DNA from: Pseudomonas phage TIETA
Sequence record: PV800129.1
Direction: 5' to 3' (one strand)
Length of the DNA stretch: 64,000 bases
Shown here: one piece after another, positions 21,176-54,726 of the stretch
Layout of the letters: every line of letters begins with the position of its first letter
Numbering within the stretch: position 1 is the stretch's first letter
Made by a program: the position numbers and the translations under genes
Notes under the pieces: generated by a model
The model's input: the letters and a program-made list of their open reading frames with translations, nothing else
Told to the model about the DNA's origin: nothing
The model's database searches: none

Positions 21176-21203
21176 ATAATACCACGTTTCTCAGGAATGT
21201 CAA
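21176..21203 (-). promoter_or_regulatory. consensus sigma70-like promoter for leftward early operon
   Basis: reverse complement reads TTGACA-N16-TATTAT. Confidence 0.6.
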
Positions 21204-21225
21204 CCCATTTTGTTCTGGTAGAGGC

Positions 21226-21253
21226 TTGACATAGAGGAAATCTGTGGTATTAT
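21226..21253 (+). promoter_or_regulatory. consensus sigma70-like promoter driving ncRNA copy A
   Basis: TTGACAtagaggaaatctgtggTATTAT; divergent from the - promoter 25 bp away. Confidence 0.65.
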
Positions 21254-21259
21254 CAATAT

Positions 21260-21541
21260 TCAGCGTGGGAGAGATATGTCTGAAAGCACTCACCGGCCCA
21301 CGCCTAGCGCCTATGAAGAGGAATCCACAAGGGCAACCTGAACTCGAATGCTGTTAAAGGGTGGAGACGACGCGAAAGCGGAATGACAGCAATCCGATGC
21401 AGCCTACATGCTGCCCCTCACCGAACTCATCTGCATGAGTAAGAGGAATTGGATAGAGCCAAGGCACGTCTTAGGCAGATTAAATTCTGTATGGCGAGCC
21501 TTGGGACGACTCTATCCTTCCCTAGCCGAATCTATCTGCAT
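21260..21541 (+). ncRNA. structured non-coding RNA, copy A (~280 nt; paralogue of 54181-54460)
   Basis: no ORF; colinear blocks shared with copy B (cactcaccggcc, tatgaagaggaa, cgacgac, ctcaccgaactcatctgcat, gtcttaggc, gtatggc, atctatctgcat); compensatory changes preserve helices gcgtggg/cccacgc vs ctgctgg/ccagcag, gcagc/gctgc vs ggagc/gctcc, ggatagag/ctctatcc vs gaggcagacc/ggtctgcctc, gcag/ctgt vs gcgg/ccgt. Confidence 0.6.
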
Positions 21542-21615
21542 GGGGTGTTCTCCTGATACACATACACAGAATACCCACCACAGATAATCCATCAATCAAC
21601 CCATAAGGAATTTCT

Positions 21616-21804
21616 ATGAGATGTAAGTGCTGTGATAGCGAACTCTCGTTTGAGACTCCAGTCATCAATAAACATACTGGTAAGGAGGACGATCTCTGCT
21701 CCTCTTGCCGTAGGTTTGCTCTCAATCCTACACTGGATCATGAGTATTTTGGTGGTTGGTATCCAAGCGAAGGGGTTACCGCTCCTCTACCGACCGGGGA
21801 CTGA
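21616..21804 (+). CDS. small zinc-ribbon protein (62 aa)
   Basis: CKCC...CSSC pairs; AAGGAA RBS. Confidence 0.45.
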   Translation: MRCKCCDSELSFETPVINKHTGKEDDLCSSCRRFALNPTLDHEYFGGWYPSEGVTAPLPTGD

Positions 21805-21879
21805 CATTGTATATAGAGTGCGCGTACTCTGACAATACATATAAATAATAGATTACGGTGCGAATAATTCTTTAAGGGC

Positions 21880-21907
21880 TTGACAACAGGAGATTTCGTG
21901 CTATAAT
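21880..21907 (+). promoter_or_regulatory. consensus sigma70-like promoter (TTGACA-N16-TATAAT), preceded by palindrome AGAGTGCGCGTACTCT
   Basis: read in sequence. Confidence 0.6.
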
Positions 21908-22275: not shown

Positions 22276-22349
22276 TGCCGCTTCGTTCAATGGTAGGACG
22301 CCAGACTTTGAATCTGGAGATGATGGTTCAATTCCATCAGTGGCTGCCA
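22276..22349 (+). tRNA. tRNA-Gln (anticodon TTG)
   Basis: anticodon arm ccaga-cTTTGaa-tctgg, T arm gatgg-ttcaatt-ccatc, CCA encoded; T.T at 1:72. Confidence 0.65.
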
Positions 22350-22430
22350 AATGTGGTAAAAGAACATTCACCCGACAAGGAATGTGTCTCGCTCAGAGGA
22401 CAGCGAGTAATAAGTGTCCTCCAGAATTAA

Positions 22431-22507
22431 GGGTCGGTGAGCGTAATTGGCAACCTACTGGATTCCAAATCCTCGTATTCTCTGTTCGAATCGGAGTCGG
22501 CCCGCCA
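22431..22507 (+). pseudogene. degenerate tRNA-like gene (intact acceptor and T arm; anticodon-like loop ttCCAaa but unpaired stems; possible tRNA-Trp remnant)
   Basis: acceptor gggtcgg/tcggccc + G + CCA, T arm ctctg-ttcgaat-cggag; no foldable D or anticodon stem. Confidence 0.4.
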
Positions 22508-22554
22508 AATTAGTGTTGACAGGGGCGAAGGTCTCCTGTATAGTGACGCCAATT

Positions 22555-22629
22555 GCTCGTATAGTGTAACGGATGCACAACGGTCTTCTAAGCCGTAAGG
22601 TCTAGGTTCGAATCCTAGTATGAGCGCCA
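22555..22629 (+). tRNA. tRNA-Arg (anticodon TCT)
   Basis: acceptor gctcgta/tatgagc, D stem gtgt/gcac, anticodon arm acggt-cTTCTaa-gccgt, T arm ctagg-ttcgaat-cctag, CCA. Confidence 0.8.
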
Positions 22630-22636
22630 AATTAGA

Positions 22637-22713
22637 TGGACGGAAGCTAAAGTGGTCCCGGCATCTGGCTTTTAACCAGACCTTAGTGAGTTCGAGTCTC
22701 ACCCGTTCAACCA
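22637..22713 (+). tRNA. tRNA-Lys (anticodon TTT)
   Basis: anticodon arm tctgg-cTTTTaa-ccaga, T arm gtgag-ttcgagt-ctcac, acceptor tggacgg/ccgttca, CCA. Confidence 0.75.
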
Positions 22714-22718
22714 ATTTT

Positions 22719-22806
22719 AGTGAGTAAATCAGATAGGTTCTGAGGCTCCCTGCTAAGGAGTACGTCTGCTAACGCGGATGTGGATCGAGACCACTGCTCA
22801 CTGCCA
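22719..22806 (+). tRNA. tRNA-Ser (anticodon GCT), class II
   Basis: acceptor agtgagt/gctcact + G + CCA, anticodon arm gctcc-cTGCTaa-ggagt, long variable arm. Confidence 0.6.
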
Positions 22807-22836
22807 AATCACTGCCAAAATAAGTGATTTTAAGTG

Positions 22837-22865
22837 TTGACAAACTGAGTTTTTCATGTTTTAAT
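22837..22865 (+). promoter_or_regulatory. sigma70-like promoter inside tRNA cluster (TTGACA-N17-TTTAAT)
   Basis: read in sequence. Confidence 0.5.
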
Positions 22866-22890
22866 ACACTTATCAGATCAAGAAATACTT

Positions 22891-22980
22891 AGCGAGTAGC
22901 CCTGAGTAGGTCGGGAACTAGTCTAGAAAACTAGGCCACTGTGATGAACGGTGAGGGTTCGACTCCTTTACTCGCTGCCA
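22891..22980 (+). tRNA. class II tRNA (Ser-like; anticodon ambiguous, possibly AGA)
   Basis: acceptor agcgagt/actcgct + G + CCA, T arm gaggg-ttcgact-ccttt, long variable arm; anticodon arm ctagt-cTAGAaa-actag is unusual. Confidence 0.5.
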
Positions 22981-22986
22981 AATTAA

Positions 22987-23071
22987 GGCCCTGTGGTGGA
23001 ATTGGTATACACATCAGTCTTAGAAACTGACGCCGAGAGGATTGAGGGTTCAAGTCCCTCCGGGGCCACCA
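22987..23071 (+). tRNA. tRNA-Leu (anticodon TAG), class II
   Basis: acceptor ggccctg/cggggcc + A + CCA, anticodon arm tcagt-cTTAGaa-actga, T arm gaggg-ttcaagt-ccctc. Confidence 0.75.
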
Positions 23072-23228
23072 AATTAAGAATCTCTTTTGCTATTTGGTAA
23101 GGGTTCGAGTCCCTTCCCGGCTGCTATGGTCGGTCTACGGTGGCCAAATAGTGAGAGAGCTAGGGGACATGACGAAGGTAGCGCTGCTTTCCGATCTCCC
23201 CGGCGCTATAAAAGTTATCATGAAGGGG

Positions 23229-23256
23229 TTGACAAACAAGAAATTCATGATAATAT
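23229..23256 (+). promoter_or_regulatory. sigma70-like promoter inside tRNA cluster (TTGACA-N16-TAATAT)
   Basis: read in sequence. Confidence 0.5.
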
Positions 23257-23281
23257 AGGTACATAGAGTAACAAACAATAT

Positions 23282-23357
23282 AGCCGGATAGCTCAATTGG
23301 TAGAGCACCCGACCGATAATCGGATGGTTGAAGGTTCAAGTCCTTCTCTGGCTACCA
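23282..23357 (+). tRNA. tRNA-Ile (anticodon GAT)
   Basis: acceptor agccgga/tctggct + A + CCA, D arm gctc-aattggta-gagc, anticodon loop ccGATaa (C at position 33), T arm gaagg-ttcaagt-ccttc. Confidence 0.7.
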
Positions 23358-23366
23358 GAATTTATA

Positions 23367-23445
23367 GGCCCATTAGCTCAGTCTGGACTAGAGCAAGCCC
23401 CTGTCTAGGGCAAGGTCGTCGGTTCGAATCCGACATGGGTCGCCA
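23367..23445 (+). tRNA. tRNA-Asp (anticodon GTC)
   Basis: acceptor ggcccat/atgggtc + G + CCA, anticodon loop cTGTCta, T arm gtcgg-ttcgaat-ccgac. Confidence 0.7.
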
Positions 23446-23449
23446 ACAA

Positions 23450-23536
23450 GGTCGTTGTAGAGATAGATGGCTACTATCATCCGGCTGTAACCCGGACGCC
23501 ATAGGCTAGAGGTTCAATTCCTTCCTTCGACCACCA
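23450..23536 (+). tRNA. tRNA-Tyr (anticodon GTA), class II, imperfect acceptor stem
   Basis: anticodon arm tccgg-cTGTAac-ccgga, D stem gata/tatc, ACCA 3' end; two U.U mismatches in acceptor. Confidence 0.5.
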
Positions 23537-23539
23537 AAT

Positions 23540-23620
23540 AGCGAGAGCGTTAAGACTGGCTGGAGCTGTCACTCGGCTCATAACCGAGCACAAGTGGTTC
23601 GATTCCACCTCTCGCTACCA
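23540..23620 (+). tRNA. tRNA-Met (anticodon CAT) with unusually long D region
   Basis: acceptor agcgaga/tctcgct + A + CCA, anticodon arm ctcgg-cTCATaa-ccgag, T arm gtgg-ttcgatt-ccac. Confidence 0.5.
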
Positions 23621-23895
23621 AATTGCACTCCGAGGAACCCTAAGACTGAGGGGGTTCAGTGTCGCTACCTATCTCGGTAAGGGGAAGCGCCTAAGCTGGC
23701 ACGGGTAATTGAGTAGCTGTGATAAGCTATTGGCAGCCAGCATAAATCGTCCGGCTCGGGCCCGTTATAGCCCTTAGATTCAAGAATACTTCTGACGCTT
23801 CTCATAGCGCACCACAGAAGTAGTTGAATTAGATGCTGTAAGCCATAGGAGGTGATCCAGTATCTCCCGGAGGGGCCCGGGTTAACAACCTCATG
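23621..23895 (+). other. 275-nt tRNA-free non-coding spacer within tRNA cluster (possible stable RNA)
   Basis: no ORF >=60 aa, no T-arm motif; contains TAGGAGGTGATCC (13-nt complement of 16S 3' end) not followed by a start codon and a GC hairpin cccggaggggcccggg. Confidence 0.35.
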
Positions 23896-23901
23896 AATTT
23901 A

Positions 23902-23978
23902 GCCCGCGTTGGCCGAGAGGTTTAGGCGGCGGATTGCAAATCCGTCTCACATCGGTTCAAATCCGATACGCGGCTCCA
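23902..23978 (+). tRNA. tRNA-Cys (anticodon GCA)
   Basis: anticodon arm gcgga-tTGCAaa-tccgt matches E. coli tRNA-Cys; T arm atcgg-ttcaaat-ccgat; 3' acgcggc-T-CCA; one extra C bulged in 5' acceptor strand. Confidence 0.7.
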
Positions 23979-23988
23979 AGGTTTATAT

Positions 23989-24064
23989 TGGGATGTAGCT
24001 CAGTTGGTAGAGCAGGGAGCTGTTAACTCTCAGGTCGCAGGTTCGAACCCTGCCGTCCCAGCCA
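23989..24064 (+). tRNA. tRNA-Asn (anticodon GTT)
   Basis: acceptor tgggatg/cgtccca + G + CCA, D arm gctc-agttggta-gagc, anticodon arm gggag-cTGTTaa-ctctc. Confidence 0.75.
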
Positions 24065-24097
24065 ATTTCCAAAAGAGACTCTTCGCTTTAGAAGCAG

Positions 24098-24127
24098 AGT
24101 CGAACGCCCGATACGGGCCTTATTATC
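24098..24127 (+). terminator. hairpin GCCCGatacGGGC followed by CTTATTAT (weak terminator or processing site inside tRNA cluster)
   Basis: read in sequence. Confidence 0.35.
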
Positions 24128-24204
24128 TCCTCGTAGCTCAGTCTGGTTAGAGTGTCGGATTTGGAATCCGAAGGTCGAAGGTTCAAATCCTTCCGGGGTG
24201 ACCA
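24127..24204 (+). tRNA. tRNA-Pro (anticodon TGG)
   Basis: anticodon arm tcgga-tTTGGaa-tccga, T arm gaagg-ttcaaat-ccttc, acceptor ctcctcg/cggggtg + A + CCA (one U.U). Confidence 0.75.
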
Positions 24205-24375
24205 ATTAGGAGTACATAGTGAAGATCAAATCGCGTGTATGTCCAGCGAAGACTGAGTATCATCGCAAACGAAACAAATGTCCTTGCTGTACGCGGCCCA
24301 ATTACGTAATGGAGTTGAGGCGTCGTCAGGAACTCAAGGAAGCGAGACTTATGGTGTCTCTAGTGTAAAATCAAA

Positions 24376-24451
24376 GCGGGTATAGCTCAGTTGGTAGAGC
24401 GTCTGCCTTCCAAGCAGTTCGTCGTCGGTTCGAGTCCGTCTATCCGCTCCA
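24376..24451 (+). tRNA. tRNA-Gly (anticodon TCC)
   Basis: acceptor gcgggta/tatccgc + T + CCA, D arm gctc-agttggta-gagc, anticodon loop cTTCCaa. Confidence 0.75.
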
Positions 24452-24468
24452 AACAATGCAGAGGTGTC

Positions 24469-24984
24469 ATGAACTACGAGAGACTATACTACAACATCGT
24501 TAGGACCGCCAGAGACAGAAAAACACCCTCTGGATATTTCGAGTCTCACCATGTAGTTCCTAGGTCTCTTGGAGGTTCAGATGACCCGGAGAATCTTGTA
24601 AACGTAACTGCAAGAGAACATTTTATATTGCACTACCTGTTAACGAAGTTCCACAATGGTGCAGATAAAATCAAGATGCTTCATGCGTTCATGCTGATGA
24701 GCGGCGGAAACGACAGACAACACCGATACATCAATGGTAGGCTCTATGAGGCCAAGAAGTCTGATTTTGCAAAAGCTCAGCGTGATAGATTCTCTGGAGT
24801 ACCTAAGACAGAAGAGCATAAACGTAAAATATCCGAATCCCTTAAAGGTCGGACTACTTCAGAAGCTACTAAAAAGAAGCAATCTGAGTCCGCCAGTAAG
24901 AGAAAAAGGAAACAATTCTCTCCTGAGTACAAAGAGGCTATGTCTCTCAGGATGAAGAAGATTAAGAACAAGAAGGGACTGTAG
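24469..24984 (+). CDS. HNH homing endonuclease with C-terminal NUMOD3-like repeats
   Basis: GAGGTG RBS; SGYFESHHVVPRSLGGSDDPENLVNVTAREH is the HNH core; EEHKRKISESLKG and SPEYKEAMS are NUMOD3-like; stop TAG lies inside tRNA-Phe. Confidence 0.75.
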   Translation: MNYERLYYNIVRTARDRKTPSGYFESHHVVPRSLGGSDDPENLVNVTAREHFILHYLLTKFHNGADKIKMLHAFMLMSGGNDRQHRYINGRLYEAKKSDFAKAQRDRFSGVPKTEEHKRKISESLKGRTTSEATKKKQSESASKRKRKQFSPEYKEAMSLRMKKIKNKKGL

Positions 24985-25051
24985 CTCAGAAGGTTAGAGC
25001 GGTGGATTGAAATCCCACAGGTCGGGCGTTCGATTCGCCCCGGTCCTACCA
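24975..25051 (+). tRNA. tRNA-Phe (anticodon GAA); 5' end overlaps HNH gene stop
   Basis: acceptor gggactg/cggtcct + A + CCA, D arm gctc-agaaggtta-gagc, anticodon loop tTGAAat, T arm gggcg-ttcgatt-cgccc. Confidence 0.7.
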
Positions 25052-25057
25052 AACAAT

Positions 25058-25133
25058 GCAGTTATAGATTAAATGGATAAATCGCCAGACTTTCAATCTG
25101 GTGTTCCGGGTTCGATCCCCGGTAACTGCTCCA
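25058..25133 (+). tRNA. tRNA-Glu (anticodon TTC)
   Basis: acceptor gcagtta/taactgc + T + CCA perfect, D stem gatt/aatc, anticodon arm ccaga-cTTTCaa-tctgg, T arm ccggg-ttcgatc-cccgg. Confidence 0.8.
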
Positions 25134-25139
25134 ATCAAG

Positions 25140-25190
25140 TCCAAGCCGGAACATTCCTCCGTATGTGCTTTCAGCCGGCTTGGCATTATT
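25140..25190 (+). terminator. 9-bp hairpin CCAAGCCGG...CCGGCTTGG followed by CATTATT
   Basis: read in sequence; between tRNA-Glu and tRNA-His. Confidence 0.35.
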
Positions 25191-25193
25191 CGT

Positions 25194-25269
25194 GTGGAGA
25201 TTGTGTAGCCCGGATGCTGCCTTTCGGTTGTGACCCGATTGTTGGGGTTCGAGTCCCCGCCTCCAACCA
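25194..25269 (+). tRNA. tRNA-His (anticodon GTG)
   Basis: anticodon arm ttcgg-tTGTGac-ccgat, T arm gggg-ttcgagt-cccc, 3' gcctcca-A-CCA, candidate G-1 at 25194. Confidence 0.6.
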
Positions 25270-25588
25270 ATGTCGTGCAATGGTATATCGCGTTGACGCT
25301 TTTAGGCTCTCTGGATCGTAAGCCAGTAAAGCGAGAATAGCGGGCTCTCGCAGCAGAGCGATAGGTGGTTCGATTCCACAACATGACACTCTTTCCTCCT
25401 CGCCTGTGCTGAACGGTTTCCTCCTCCTTTCCCGTCTCACAGGCTCTATTCCCTGCCCTTTAAGCATTTATGGTGATGCACCGGCTTTGTAACCCGGCGA
25501 ATTCTGTTCAAGTCAGGAATGGGGCACCAATTCACTATCAAAGAACCCGCAAGCTCCCGATAGGGTTCACACTCTATAAGGTTGTAGC

Positions 25589-52400: not shown

Positions 52401-53552
52401 TCACTCCTCCTTCAGAAGGTACTCGTTGCTAATAACCTTGAAACTAAAGTCTCGGCTCATGCTTTTGAACACCAAACCTTCCCGGTACTTACCGTTCAAC
52501 GCAGACTCTCCGCTAGCCATTTCAATTACATCTTGCATGTCTTTTGGAACGCCTACGTCCCACATGTACACCGGCACATGTTTAACATCCTCTTCGCCGT
52601 CATCAGCTAGCGCGTTCAGGATTCCCAGAGTGGCCAGTCGCTCTTCTGGAAGATAGTAACGACTCTCCGAAATGTTGTAGATATCGTACACATAGTATTC
52701 CGGTTTGTCAACTCCCTCGAAGTTGCCTTGAATATTCGGTGCAACCAGTTCACCCTGAAGGGCGATATTTAGACCAAACTCCCGGAGACGTTCACCAAGA
52801 TTAAGCTCTTCTGCCATCGCAGTGAAGTGATTGGAGTCTTTCTTAATCACACGCTTCCAGCCACGACCCTTAAAGAAGTTCTTGACAGCCGTGAAGAACC
52901 CGATCTTCTCGTCTTCCAGACGGAAACCGACATTTCGAGACGCCACGCCTACTTCTCCATCCTTGTGCCAGATGGTGAGAGACGAGCCGTCCAGCTTGAA
53001 TGTCACTTCAAACTTCTCGTCCTTCTGATGAGCCTGATCGTAAGCCATCTGAATATTCTGTACGCGGGCCTGATCCGTTTTCGGGATGAAGTTGGGGAAC
53101 CCTAGCTTAGAGGTGCCTTTTCGGTCGCCCTTAGCCTTTGCTCCGCCGTCAATAGCCGCCTGTTCTGAAGGCTTGACATACTTCAGAATACCCATCTGGT
53201 CAGTGAGGTCTTGATCCTCTTTAAGATTAGGAAGGCCGGCAGCATCAACAGGCACGATCAGACCTTGGCTAAGCTCTTTACGCAGCTTCATAGTTTTGAT
53301 CCGAGAATATTCTTTTCCATCCCGCTCAACCATATTACGGCCTCGCAGGAATTCAAAGATAGGGTTGTCCATAGGGACCATGGAATCCACTTCAATGTAG
53401 ATTGCCAGATCACCAGCCTGATACTCACCTCGTTTGATTACGCACTGCCAGCCACCAACAAGCGCCAGATCAAGGCTGTCAGCGTTAGGATGGGTCTTCA
53501 CATCGTCGATACGCACCACTCGGGCTAGTACGCGGTCTTGGGAATTGCTCAT
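52401..53552 (-). CDS. RNA ligase-like nucleotidyltransferase with N-terminal tRNA-binding-type OB domain
   Basis: N-terminal HPNADSLDLALVGGWQCV resembles tRNA-binding OB folds; central TFKLDGSS lysine motif I (KxDG). Confidence 0.55.
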   Translation of the reverse strand: MSNSQDRVLARVVRIDDVKTHPNADSLDLALVGGWQCVIKRGEYQAGDLAIYIEVDSMVPMDNPIFEFLRGRNMVERDGKEYSRIKTMKLRKELSQGLIVPVDAAGLPNLKEDQDLTDQMGILKYVKPSEQAAIDGGAKAKGDRKGTSKLGFPNFIPKTDQARVQNIQMAYDQAHQKDEKFEVTFKLDGSSLTIWHKDGEVGVASRNVGFRLEDEKIGFFTAVKNFFKGRGWKRVIKKDSNHFTAMAEELNLGERLREFGLNIALQGELVAPNIQGNFEGVDKPEYYVYDIYNISESRYYLPEERLATLGILNALADDGEEDVKHVPVYMWDVGVPKDMQDVIEMASGESALNGKYREGLVFKSMSRDFSFKVISNEYLLKEE

Positions 53553-54112: not shown

Positions 54113-54141
54113 AAGTCGTTGTATTCTGCCCGGATATCTTC
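54113..54141 (-). promoter_or_regulatory. sigma70-like promoter for leftward operon (rc TTGACA-N17-CAGAAT)
   Basis: -35 perfect, -10 weak; divergent from ncRNA B promoter. Confidence 0.45.
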
Positions 54142-54146
54142 GCAGT

Positions 54147-54174
54147 GTCAATAGCCTTGACAAGAAAATAATCC
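54147..54174 (+). promoter_or_regulatory. sigma70-like promoter driving ncRNA copy B (TTGACA-N16-TAAAGT)
   Basis: read in sequence. Confidence 0.55.
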
Positions 54175-54180
54175 GTGGTA

Positions 54181-54460
54181 AAGTGTGAGGCCTGCTGGAG
54201 AGAAATGTCCACGTCACTCACCGGCCAGCAGTATAGCGTATGAAGAGGAAAGCTGCAAGCGCATCCTGAGTCGAATCTGAGAACAGGGCAGCGACGACCC
54301 GTAAGGGGAAAGCTCAGAGCCTATAAGGAGCCCATGCTCCCCGCTCACCGACTCATCTGCATAATGAGAGCGAGAGGCAGACCAGAGGCATGTCTTAGGC
54401 GGAAAAATCCGTATGGCAAGCCTAGGGACAGGTCTGCCTCCACTACCGATCTATCTGCAT
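54181..54460 (+). ncRNA. structured non-coding RNA, copy B (paralogue of 21260-21541)
   Basis: see copy A; G.U pairs in shared helices fit + strand orientation. Confidence 0.6.
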
Positions 54461-54468
54461 ACAAGAAC

Positions 54469-54497
54469 TTGACAGTATCCTGTAAACCGTGTAGAGT
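54469..54497 (+). promoter_or_regulatory. sigma70-like promoter (TTGACA-N17-TAGAGT) immediately after ncRNA B
   Basis: read in sequence. Confidence 0.55.
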
Positions 54498-54528
54498 AAT
54501 CTCAAATCAACCGCAGAGGAGTGTATAA

Positions 54529-54726
54529 ATGAAGCATGTTATTCACCGTGAAGACCTTATCGACCTACTACGTGATCGTATGAAGCTTGAAGCTCTAGAA
54601 GCTGGCGGGGTGGACAACTGGGACTGGTATGAGGCCTCGCTAATCGACTGCGGATACTTCGATGACGATGGCCGGGAGCTAGAGGTCGAAGCTCTTGCAG
54701 ATTGCTTCCCAACCGTAGGTGCGTAA
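54529..54726 (+). CDS. hypothetical acidic protein (65 aa)
   Basis: GAGGAG RBS. Confidence 0.45.
   Translation: MKHVIHREDLIDLLRDRMKLEALEAGGVDNWDWYEASLIDCGYFDDDGRELEVEALADCFPTVGA

Follow-up and report, generated by a model that had tools for sequence, protein, structure and literature searches.

What kind of element is formed by two colinear, non-coding segments, each lying directly behind a consensus promoter, in the genome of Pseudomonas phage TIETA (PV800129.1)? The window, i.e. the whole stretch of 64,000 nucleotides (nt) analysed here, belongs to a Pakpunavirus (PaoP5/PAK_P4-like). A preliminary description of this sequence had presented the two segments, copy A and copy B, as paralogous structured RNAs. 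We found that they belong to a new RNA family, large, double-pseudoknotted and restricted to phages, of which each genome has two paralogues, and that the observation is real and far beyond chance. As to function, we tentatively favour a new cis-acting, switch-type leader RNA of early operons, to which we give a probability of roughly 0.4. The two segments align colinearly with 77% column identity, conserved blocks being separated by variable stretches, which bears out the proposed paralogy and the places given for it:

~21260-21545, + strand: copy A RNA, whole element (nhmmer match 21264-21547; alignments)
~54190-54465, + strand: copy B RNA, whole element (nhmmer and alignment; architecture as copy A)

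Fold of the RNA and covariation evidence

The structure model was built on MAFFT alignments of 28, later 35, distinct sequences and comprises 11 helices and two pseudoknots, with a 5' hairpin, several further hairpins and a long 3' hairpin. Considering the 35 sequences, 93.4% of the 2103 cells of the 65-pair model are standard pairs, against 76.0% after column shuffling (0 of 500 shuffles as high as observed) and 34-45% when the partners were slid. Compensatory change on both sides was found in 50 of the 65 modelled pairs. RNAalifold, which is unable to draw pseudoknots, independently recovered P1, a, d, e, g, h, k and j. The selection on RNA structure that had been proposed from two copies is thus strengthened with about 45 homologues, and covariation support was kept as more sequences were aligned. 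Indeed, the four helices named earlier all covary and correspond to P1 (gcgtggg/cccacgc in copy A, ctgctgg/ccagcag in copy B), g (gcagc/gctgc, ggagc/gctcc), h (ggatagag/ctctatcc, gaggcagacc/ggtctgcctc) and j (gcag/ctgt, gcgg/ccgt) of the family model. Some G-U pairs never vary (e.g. 277-292 and 271-296); the opposite strand would have C-A in their place, which identifies the plus strand RNA as the molecule under selection. The helices of the two copies are the following:

21263-21303, + strand: P1 hairpin, copy A, GCGTGGG/CCCACGC (6 of 7 pairs covary; 98% of cells paired)
21309-11/21332-34, + strand: pseudoknot a, copy A, GCC/GGC, crossing b and c (3 of 3 pairs covary)
21324-28/21361-65, + strand: helix b, copy A, TCCAC/GTGGA (5 of 5 pairs covary)
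21337-39/21358-60, + strand: helix c, copy A, CCT/AGG, stacking with b (2 of 3 pairs covary)
21349-54/21386-91, + strand: pseudoknot helix d, copy A, TGCTGT/ACAGCA, crossing b and c (6 of 6 pairs covary; 98.6% paired)
21371-80, + strand: hairpin e, copy A, CGC-GAAA-GCG, enclosed by d and flanked by invariant GACGAC and GGAATGA (GGAAUGA)
21399-21414, + strand: hairpin g, copy A, GCAGC-CTACAT-GCTGC (4 of 5 pairs covary)
21451-21517, + strand: long 3' hairpin, copy A, helices h, i, k and j (covariation; RNAalifold)
21451-58/21510-17, + strand: helix h, copy A, GGATAGAG/CTCTATCC
54192-98/54225-31, 54236-38/54260-62 and 54252-56/54288-92, + strand: P1, a and b of copy B (alignment)
54276-81/54313-18, 54327-31/54336-40 and 54374-83/54431-40, + strand: d, g and h of copy B (alignment)

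The 5' two-thirds of the RNA form a compact core in which P1 and the two pseudoknots hold invariant unpaired blocks. The interior of P1 (7 bp) is invariant (GAGAGATATGTC...CACTCACCGG in DNA, GAGAGAUAUGUC ... CACUCACCGG in RNA), as is the 12-nt loop of pseudoknot a (TATGAAGAGGA at 21312-22, UAUGAAGAGGA in RNA), and helix d (6 bp) has its 5' strand within the loop of c and its 3' strand beyond hairpin e. Some parts are optional: an extra hairpin at the tip of P1 is present in some relatives only, hairpins f and g may be absent, and g is missing from the XD2/Bobbio/PN09 lineage. In the 3' third, helices h, i, k and j build one long, irregular hairpin whose conserved parts are the internal loops TTAG/AT (UUAG/AU) and a GGGAC bulge, which reads GGGACG in copy A.

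Family and distribution

About 45 homologues were collected, all of them in Pseudomonas-type myophages, soil viral contigs included. The copy A region matches Pseudomonas phages PaoP5 and HenuyfyN19 at 100% identity and is at least 99% identical in 115 phage records, every one a Pakpunavirus, and copy B is present in 148 records of the same genus with 89-100% identity (BLAST). Beyond this genus, BLAST found diverged homologues in Otagovirus/Flaumdravirus (COT4, KIL1, VCM, PN09, PPSC2, PHB09, Ep020 and the 'Pectobacterium' phage Bobbio) and in XD2, Pyxpy01, UAVern, ventosus and P. putida phages. Further members, in viral contigs from soil and other metagenomes, were obtained by pattern scans, nhmmer being used to confirm full-length homologues and to discard chance matches. 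The element measures ~265-310 nt across the family (~285 nt for the copies of this phage). Phages with enough sequence have two copies, one A type and one B type, at the same two syntenic divergent-promoter loci: both are present in PPSC2, KIL1, PHB09, Pyxpy01 and contig 3300034170_000007, and those of COT4 lie at 21.5 and 56.6 kb. A pattern search of 185,579 bacterial and archaeal genomes gave 10 matches, all due to chance, and a scan of viral contigs with the 3'-domain pattern returned full-length members or chance matches, with no relative having the 3' domain or the 5' domain alone.

The absence of a match to known RNA families, already stated in the preliminary description, was confirmed at gathering and at permissive thresholds. 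Briefly, the Rfam 15 gathering scan of the whole window returned 13 tRNAs only, and permissive Rfam scans of copies A and B and of 10 homologous loci gave sub-threshold noise only (eukaryotic small Cajal body RNA, microRNA and long non-coding RNA models). A 14-bit match to group-II-D1D4-3 (threshold 32) was regarded as noise, as it does not recur in homologues. No tmRNA was found by ARAGORN. An RNase P-like reading of the GAGGAA...GGGCA blocks near the tRNA cluster was rejected, the topology being different and no RNase P model matching at E<=10. We found no description of the element in the literature on non-coding, small or structured RNAs of Pakpunavirus or PaoP5, and a 2023 catalogue that lists more than 10,000 candidate structured RNAs of viruses makes no mention of Pseudomonas phages in its text.

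It had also been suggested that the copies might be the abundant non-coding RNAs reported from related phages, namely sRNA1 and sRNA2 (ncRNA1/2) of the Nankokuvirus PAK_P3. These resemble the present element in being non-coding, in belonging to related myophages of P. aeruginosa and in their place close to the tRNA region, but they are late, processed fragments of ~90-210 nt from a 3' untranslated region or the tRNA region, with no start site of their own (PMC4933390; 10.1101/2023.10.13.562163). The proposed identity was dropped: neither RNA (85,348-85,430 and 86,344-86,477) has a motif match or an nhmmer match at E<=10 with filters off. With the same settings, no family homologue was found in L008, L009 or PAK_P3 1-45,000, and the region of PAK_P3 from RNA ligase to primase is unidirectional, without a divergent locus.

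Alternative pairing of helix h

The mutual-information analysis showed that two columns of the 5' core covary perfectly with helix h. They belong to two short segments on either side of the strands of d, which in copy A are:

21342-21345, + strand: L1 segment, ACTC, alternative partner of the apical end of the h 5' strand
21392-21395, + strand: post-d segment, ATCC, alternative partner of the h 5' strand

The variable centre of L1 (UGA-NNNNN-AAU, just 5' of d) always equals the first 3-7 nt of the h 3' strand, and post-d (the 4 nt just 3' of d) equals the middle of the same strand (AUCU/AUCU, ACCU/ACCU, GCCU/GCCU). Copy A follows this rule with an unusual post-d, ATCC, which agrees with its own h 3' strand TATCC (AUCC/AUCC), and the most divergent member, L077, keeps the same relations between L1, post-d and h. 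The h 5' strand thus has two mutually exclusive covarying partners, either the h 3' strand or L1 plus post-d, and the second pairing creates a three-way junction together with d. The nine alternative pairs are formed in 90.7% of cells, against 28-53% when slid, and 6 of the 9 covary. The h 5' strand of L022, AGAC, is a better fit to post-d, GUCU, and mismatches its own 3' strand. Covariation of a single strand with either of two partners is what classically marks a conformational switch; the same L1/post-d pairing could also be an intermolecular (oligomeric) contact.

Paired direct repeats

Every member carries an imperfect direct repeat (DR) of ~24 nt on either side of the 3' hairpin, which in the window is read directly in the sequence:

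21417-21439, + strand: DR1, copy A, CTCACCGAACTCATCTGCATGAG, also a local hairpin ACTCAT-CTGC-ATGAGT
21522-21544, + strand: DR2, copy A, CTAGCCGAATCTATCTGCATGGG
54343-54368, + strand: DR1, copy B, GCTCACCGACTCATCTGCATAATGAG
54442-54465, + strand: DR2, copy B, ACTACCGATCTATCTGCATACAAG

In Otago-like members, DR1 reads ACGA-U-CNNA-A-X and DR2 reads ACGA-AA-CNNA-X, where the core X (8-13 nt) is very variable between RNAs and the same in both repeats within one RNA. Examples of X are GCGUCAUGAG, GUGUCAUGAG, GCUUCAUGAG, UCUACGAG, UUCUGGAUAG, UCUGCAU and ACAGCACA. Changes in the 'constant' part (CGA to CAA, UGU/UGA, CGC) likewise occur in both repeats. The cores of A and B copies of one genome are unlike in COT4, PPSC2, KIL1, PHB09, Pyxpy01 and one metagenomic contig, and common to both in Pakpunavirus. 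DR1 forms a local hairpin with a covarying stem, which is lengthened by an inserted AT-rich palindrome in copy B of the PAK_P1/EPA1 type. The spacing between DR1 and DR2 is 93-114 nt, with no frame bias.

Taken together with the alternative partners of h, the contiguous h 3' strand and DR2 amount to a collapsed copy of three separate upstream segments, L1, post-d and DR1. For L1 and post-d, the h 5' strand explains the copy; for DR1, there is as yet no explanation. A search of the 500 nt on either side, and of the alignment by mutual information, found no cis complement to X, which occurs elsewhere in the window at chance level only. Kissing of the repeat loops with the loops of g, f or j, examined by eye and by mutual information, was inconsistent and was discarded, as was a type III antitoxin or CRISPR-like repeat RNA: there are only two ~24-nt repeats, which flank a conserved hairpin, and no toxin or Cas gene is annotated or was detected among the flanking genes examined.

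Two variations of the repeats were noted in relatives. The DR1 insert of copy B in L025 (PAK_P1), L010 and L062 (EPA1) is a perfect palindrome, ATATACATATATGTATAT or shorter, with a third ATCTGCAT copy. L051 has an additional DR2-like unit, GAAACTCATACGAGATAG, which is placed between its DR1 and helix h and carries the core of another lineage (L024/L029 type), which suggests exchange of repeat units between phages.

Promoters and downstream regions

Both copies start ~7 nt after the extended -10 of a near-consensus sigma-70 promoter that stands back-to-back with a leftward promoter, as first described, and the TTGACA...TGnTAnnAT arrangement is kept upstream of all homologues. The promoters and the first downstream features are:

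21226-21253, + strand: copy A promoter, TTGACA-N16-TATTAT with TG extension (predicted start ~21260)
21176-21203, - strand: leftward back-to-back promoter, locus A, TTGACA-N16-TATTAT (TGTCAA kept in homologues)
54157-54184, + strand: copy B promoter, TTGACA-N16-TAAAGT with TG extension (sequence)
54123-54151, - strand: leftward back-to-back TTGACA promoter, locus B (sequence)
54469-54497, + strand: second promoter, TTGACA-N17-TAGAGT, between copy B and the downstream gene (also annotated in phage EPA1)
21545-21615, + strand: G-poor (7% G), C/A-rich spacer after copy A, leading to a Shine-Dalgarno AAGGAA and ATG
21616-21804, + strand: first gene downstream at locus A, 62-aa zinc-ribbon-like protein, phrog_10364 (also downstream of the Pyxpy01 A-type copy)
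54529-54726, + strand: first gene downstream at locus B, T7 gp5.9-like RecBCD inhibitor (PF25708, E=1.2e-13; phrog_6234)

No intrinsic terminator was found on the + strand after copy A or copy B. In Otago-like B copies, DR2 leads directly into the AGGAG and ATG of a DUF4326 gene, and the PAK_P1-type B copy also has a DUF4326-like open reading frame (ORF) behind it, about 90 nt farther along. A role for DUF4326 in the processing of phosphates derived from ADP-ribose, during conflicts between virus and host, has been proposed (PMC9503650). After A-type copies come a spacer of 35-60 nt with 2-8% G, putatively a rut-like or ribosome standby region, and then a strong Shine-Dalgarno. In Otago-like A types, a two-codon mini-ORF, AAGGAGAUUGU-AUG-NNN-UAA, stands ~40-60 nt after DR2 (loci L003, L040, L033, L022, L023, L051, L065, L066, L024 and L038), and its association with a Shine-Dalgarno looks like a regulatory start-stop or leader-peptide device. 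A position within a 5' untranslated region fits the B copies of the Otago-like and PAK_P1 types and every A copy, an extra promoter intervening in copy B of the window and in L014.

Further promoter-like sites surround the zinc-ribbon ORF. Directly after it, a sigma-70 promoter at 21880-21907 (+) matches the consensus at 12 of 12 positions with a TG extension, so that the rightward unit of locus A is re-initiated ~620 nt beyond the RNA's own promoter. On the minus strand, the site at 21806-21835 (TTGTCA-N18-TACAAT, 10 of 12) could give an antisense transcript over the zinc-ribbon ORF toward copy A. Many antisense RNAs have been reported from related phages.

A switch-type leader as the favoured function

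The adjacency of the element to a ribosome-binding site or conserved spacer, together with the absence of a terminator, favours a cis-acting leader: the element may be the 5' leader of a rightward early operon and not a free-standing non-coding RNA (ncRNA). Two further properties of switch-type leaders were found, namely a structured domain supported by covariation and a mutually exclusive pairing of the h 5' strand. As a candidate expression platform, the h 3' strand is pyrimidine-rich and DR2 abuts the Shine-Dalgarno in B-type copies. Like riboswitches and translational operators (cobalamin, glmS, S4 alpha-operon and T4 gene 32 leaders), the RNA has a putative 5' leader position, a pseudoknotted core with invariant junction nucleotides and a strand with two exclusive covarying partners and, in many members, lies near a ribosome-binding site. 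It differs from them in having no Rfam match, no terminator stem and downstream genes unrelated in function.

Starting from the observed fold and alternative pairing, we infer a sensed signal and an output step as follows. Host sigma-70 RNA polymerase would make the element as the first ~285 nt of two rightward early units. The pseudoknotted core would sense a ligand or factor, and its state would set the partner of the h 5' strand; the choice of partner would in turn free or occupy the h 3' strand and DR2, the latter adjoining either the downstream ribosome-binding site (B-type) or the G-poor rut-like spacer and mini-ORF (A-type). Such a switch may control the start of translation and/or Rho-dependent read-through at the first early genes, which would be genes of host takeover or counter-defence (RecBCD inhibitor, DUF4326, zinc-ribbon protein).

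Several points weigh against this reading. Minimum free energy z-scores of the + strand are only modestly negative (-2.2 and -1.8); the case for RNA structure rests on covariation. In this window, likewise in L014, a consensus promoter separates copy B from its gene and would let transcription bypass a switch acting purely in cis. The genes behind the paralogues are unrelated to one another (zinc-ribbon, gp5.9-like, DUF4326), unlike those of metabolite riboswitches. Pairing of the h 3' strand with the Shine-Dalgarno was not consistent when sequences were folded with the h 5' strand blocked, so that an anti-Shine-Dalgarno arrangement, which minimum free energy folding fails to reproduce, is one that we only infer. 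Finally, the identity of DR1 and DR2 is unexplained by a switch leader.

Alternative explanations

The nearest competitor, which we nevertheless hold to be rather unlikely, is a free-standing, trans-acting structured ncRNA, which would be produced abundantly by a strong promoter of its own and serve, for example, as ribonucleoprotein scaffold, decoy, anti-defence RNA or ribozyme; the repeat hairpins would then be binding or processing sites. A complex fold with two pseudoknots and many invariant unpaired nucleotides is typical of ribozymes and ribonucleoproteins more than of leaders, each genome has two copies whose conservation is independent of the downstream gene, copy B of the window has its own promoter followed at once by a second one for the genes, and identical hypervariable cores would be expected of paired recognition or processing sites. 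However, the element has no terminator or defined 3' end, adjoins a ribosome-binding site or a conserved spacer and mini-ORF in most lineages, and neither a partner protein nor a complementary target was found; the unlike repeat cores of A and B copies of one genome also argue against a single shared trans target. GOLLD, ROOL and HEARO/omega RNA are comparable in being large, multi-pseudoknotted, phage-associated, often near tRNA genes and of unknown function at discovery. The present RNA differs in its fixed promoter-proximal position, in being smaller than GOLLD or ROOL and in having no Rfam match, and no IscB/TnpB-type nuclease gene is annotated or was detected among the flanking genes examined. 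Promoter position, and not gene identity, is also what a put-like processive antitermination would explain, the nascent RNA binding its own polymerase and making it resistant to termination across the rightward units (tRNA array, replication genes). In phage HK022, putL and putR are paralogues alike in structure and diverged in sequence that lie just downstream of two early promoters, and each put RNA is ~65-75 nt long with two ~35-nt stem-loops and no pseudoknot. The likeness lies in paralogous RNAs at the 5' end of early operons in a phage dependent on host RNA polymerase, here on sigma-70 promoters. But the present RNA, at ~285 nt, is about four times the size of put, has another architecture (two pseudoknots, a 3' hairpin, alternative pairing and repeats) and no known sequence relation to it; switch-type pairing and adjacency to a ribosome-binding site would be unexpected for put, and the additional consensus promoters at 21880-21907 and 54469-54497 lessen the need for long-range antitermination. 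We therefore consider such antitermination improbable.

The repeats and alternative folds also invite comparison with pre-primer or origin RNAs such as ColE1 RNA II or the R-loops at T4 oriF/oriG: a persistent hybrid with the template at the repeat-flanked region would prime replication, and the two copies would be two origins. Both loci lie at points of divergent transcription and at minima of cumulative GC skew, copy B is just upstream of the primase/helicase and DNA polymerase genes, and L1, post-d and DR1 repeat the h 3' strand plus DR2 and could pair to the same template DNA. As with RNA II, a strong promoter drives a structured RNA that has alternative folds and upstream segments able to contact downstream template DNA, but there is no homology and no equivalent of the antisense RNA I was identified. 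Gene orientation explains the skew minima equally well, neither an AT-rich unwinding element nor a G-run is present, and the contact with a ribosome-binding site or mini-ORF would be left unexplained, so that a primer function appears very improbable. That there is no RNA element at all, the segments being a diverged small protein gene or DNA-level operators or iterons, is effectively refuted. It would accommodate ORFs of 59 aa (21408-21587) and 64 aa (54334-54528) that begin at a shared conserved ATG, and direct repeats ~100 bp apart like operator or iteron pairs. Literally, then, the earlier statement that neither copy has an ORF does not hold, but no ORF is conserved: the frame of the conserved blocks differs between the copies, indels are not in triplets and repeat spacing is unbiased, which led us to reject a protein-coding reading. 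A DNA element is opposed by the compensatory double changes (50 of 65 pairs), by the invariant G-U pairs, to which A-C would correspond in DNA or on the other strand, and by the minus strand, which folds no better than shuffled sequence (z-score -1.1). A more novel class of RNA, in which the core would be a sensor or catalyst, is unlikely but deserves to be set out in two versions: a riboswitch for infection or immunity signals (ADP-ribose/NAD-derived or cyclic nucleotide) switching on counter-defence genes (DUF4326, RecBCD inhibitor), or a split copy of the h 3' strand plus DR2 that would act on the template or be processed to a second RNA of ~100 nt. If either version were true, the identity of repeat cores within one molecule would reflect a mechanism undescribed for any RNA family. 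Mechanisms not yet imagined fill the remaining probability and are a live possibility, kept in play by the repeat rule.

Pakpunaviruses (PaoP5, PAK_P1/P4, JG004, PaP1, K5/K8) are among the most used therapeutic phages against Pseudomonas aeruginosa, and the RNA heads two rightward early units whose genes include a RecBCD inhibitor (window), DUF4326 (relatives), the tRNA array and replication genes. A switch, if true, would bring a new regulatory logic of early phage expression and a candidate sensor of the state of the infected cell; a free RNA, if true, would be a new large structured phage ncRNA. Either way, this is a well-supported new RNA family of ~45 members with strong covariation and a repeat rule without current precedent.

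Genomic context and annotation

In about 170 GenBank records the RNA is unannotated or covered by spurious 'hypothetical protein' coding sequences, two or three of which lie over the RNA in matches H8, H16, H17, H24-H26, H43, H45, H59-H69 etc. The 'sRNA' of YS35 (MF974178 39883-39895), inside copy B, is a 13-nt automated feature and was set aside as uninformative. Both kinds of feature are annotation artefacts.

At locus A, the leftward side is an operon with a Clp-like protease, dCMP deaminase and DNA ligase, and the rightward side has a small ORF, then 14 tRNA genes and the terminase. The tRNA cluster directly downstream (22276-25529, +) contains 14 genes by ARAGORN and 13 by Rfam (Gln, Arg, Leu, Ile, Asp, Met, Cys, Asn, Pro, Gly, Phe, Glu, His and Thr). 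At locus B, the leftward operon encodes small ORFs, an RNA ligase and a nucleoside triphosphate pyrophosphohydrolase, and the rightward operon extends to the primase/helicase and DNA polymerase genes. Cumulative GC skew reaches its minima at both RNA loci (window ~20-22 kb and ~52-54 kb), which would fit divergent transcription and also replication origins. The RNA ligase, third gene of the leftward operon of locus B (52401-53552, -), has an N-terminal PHA02142 OB-fold (tRNA-binding-like) domain.

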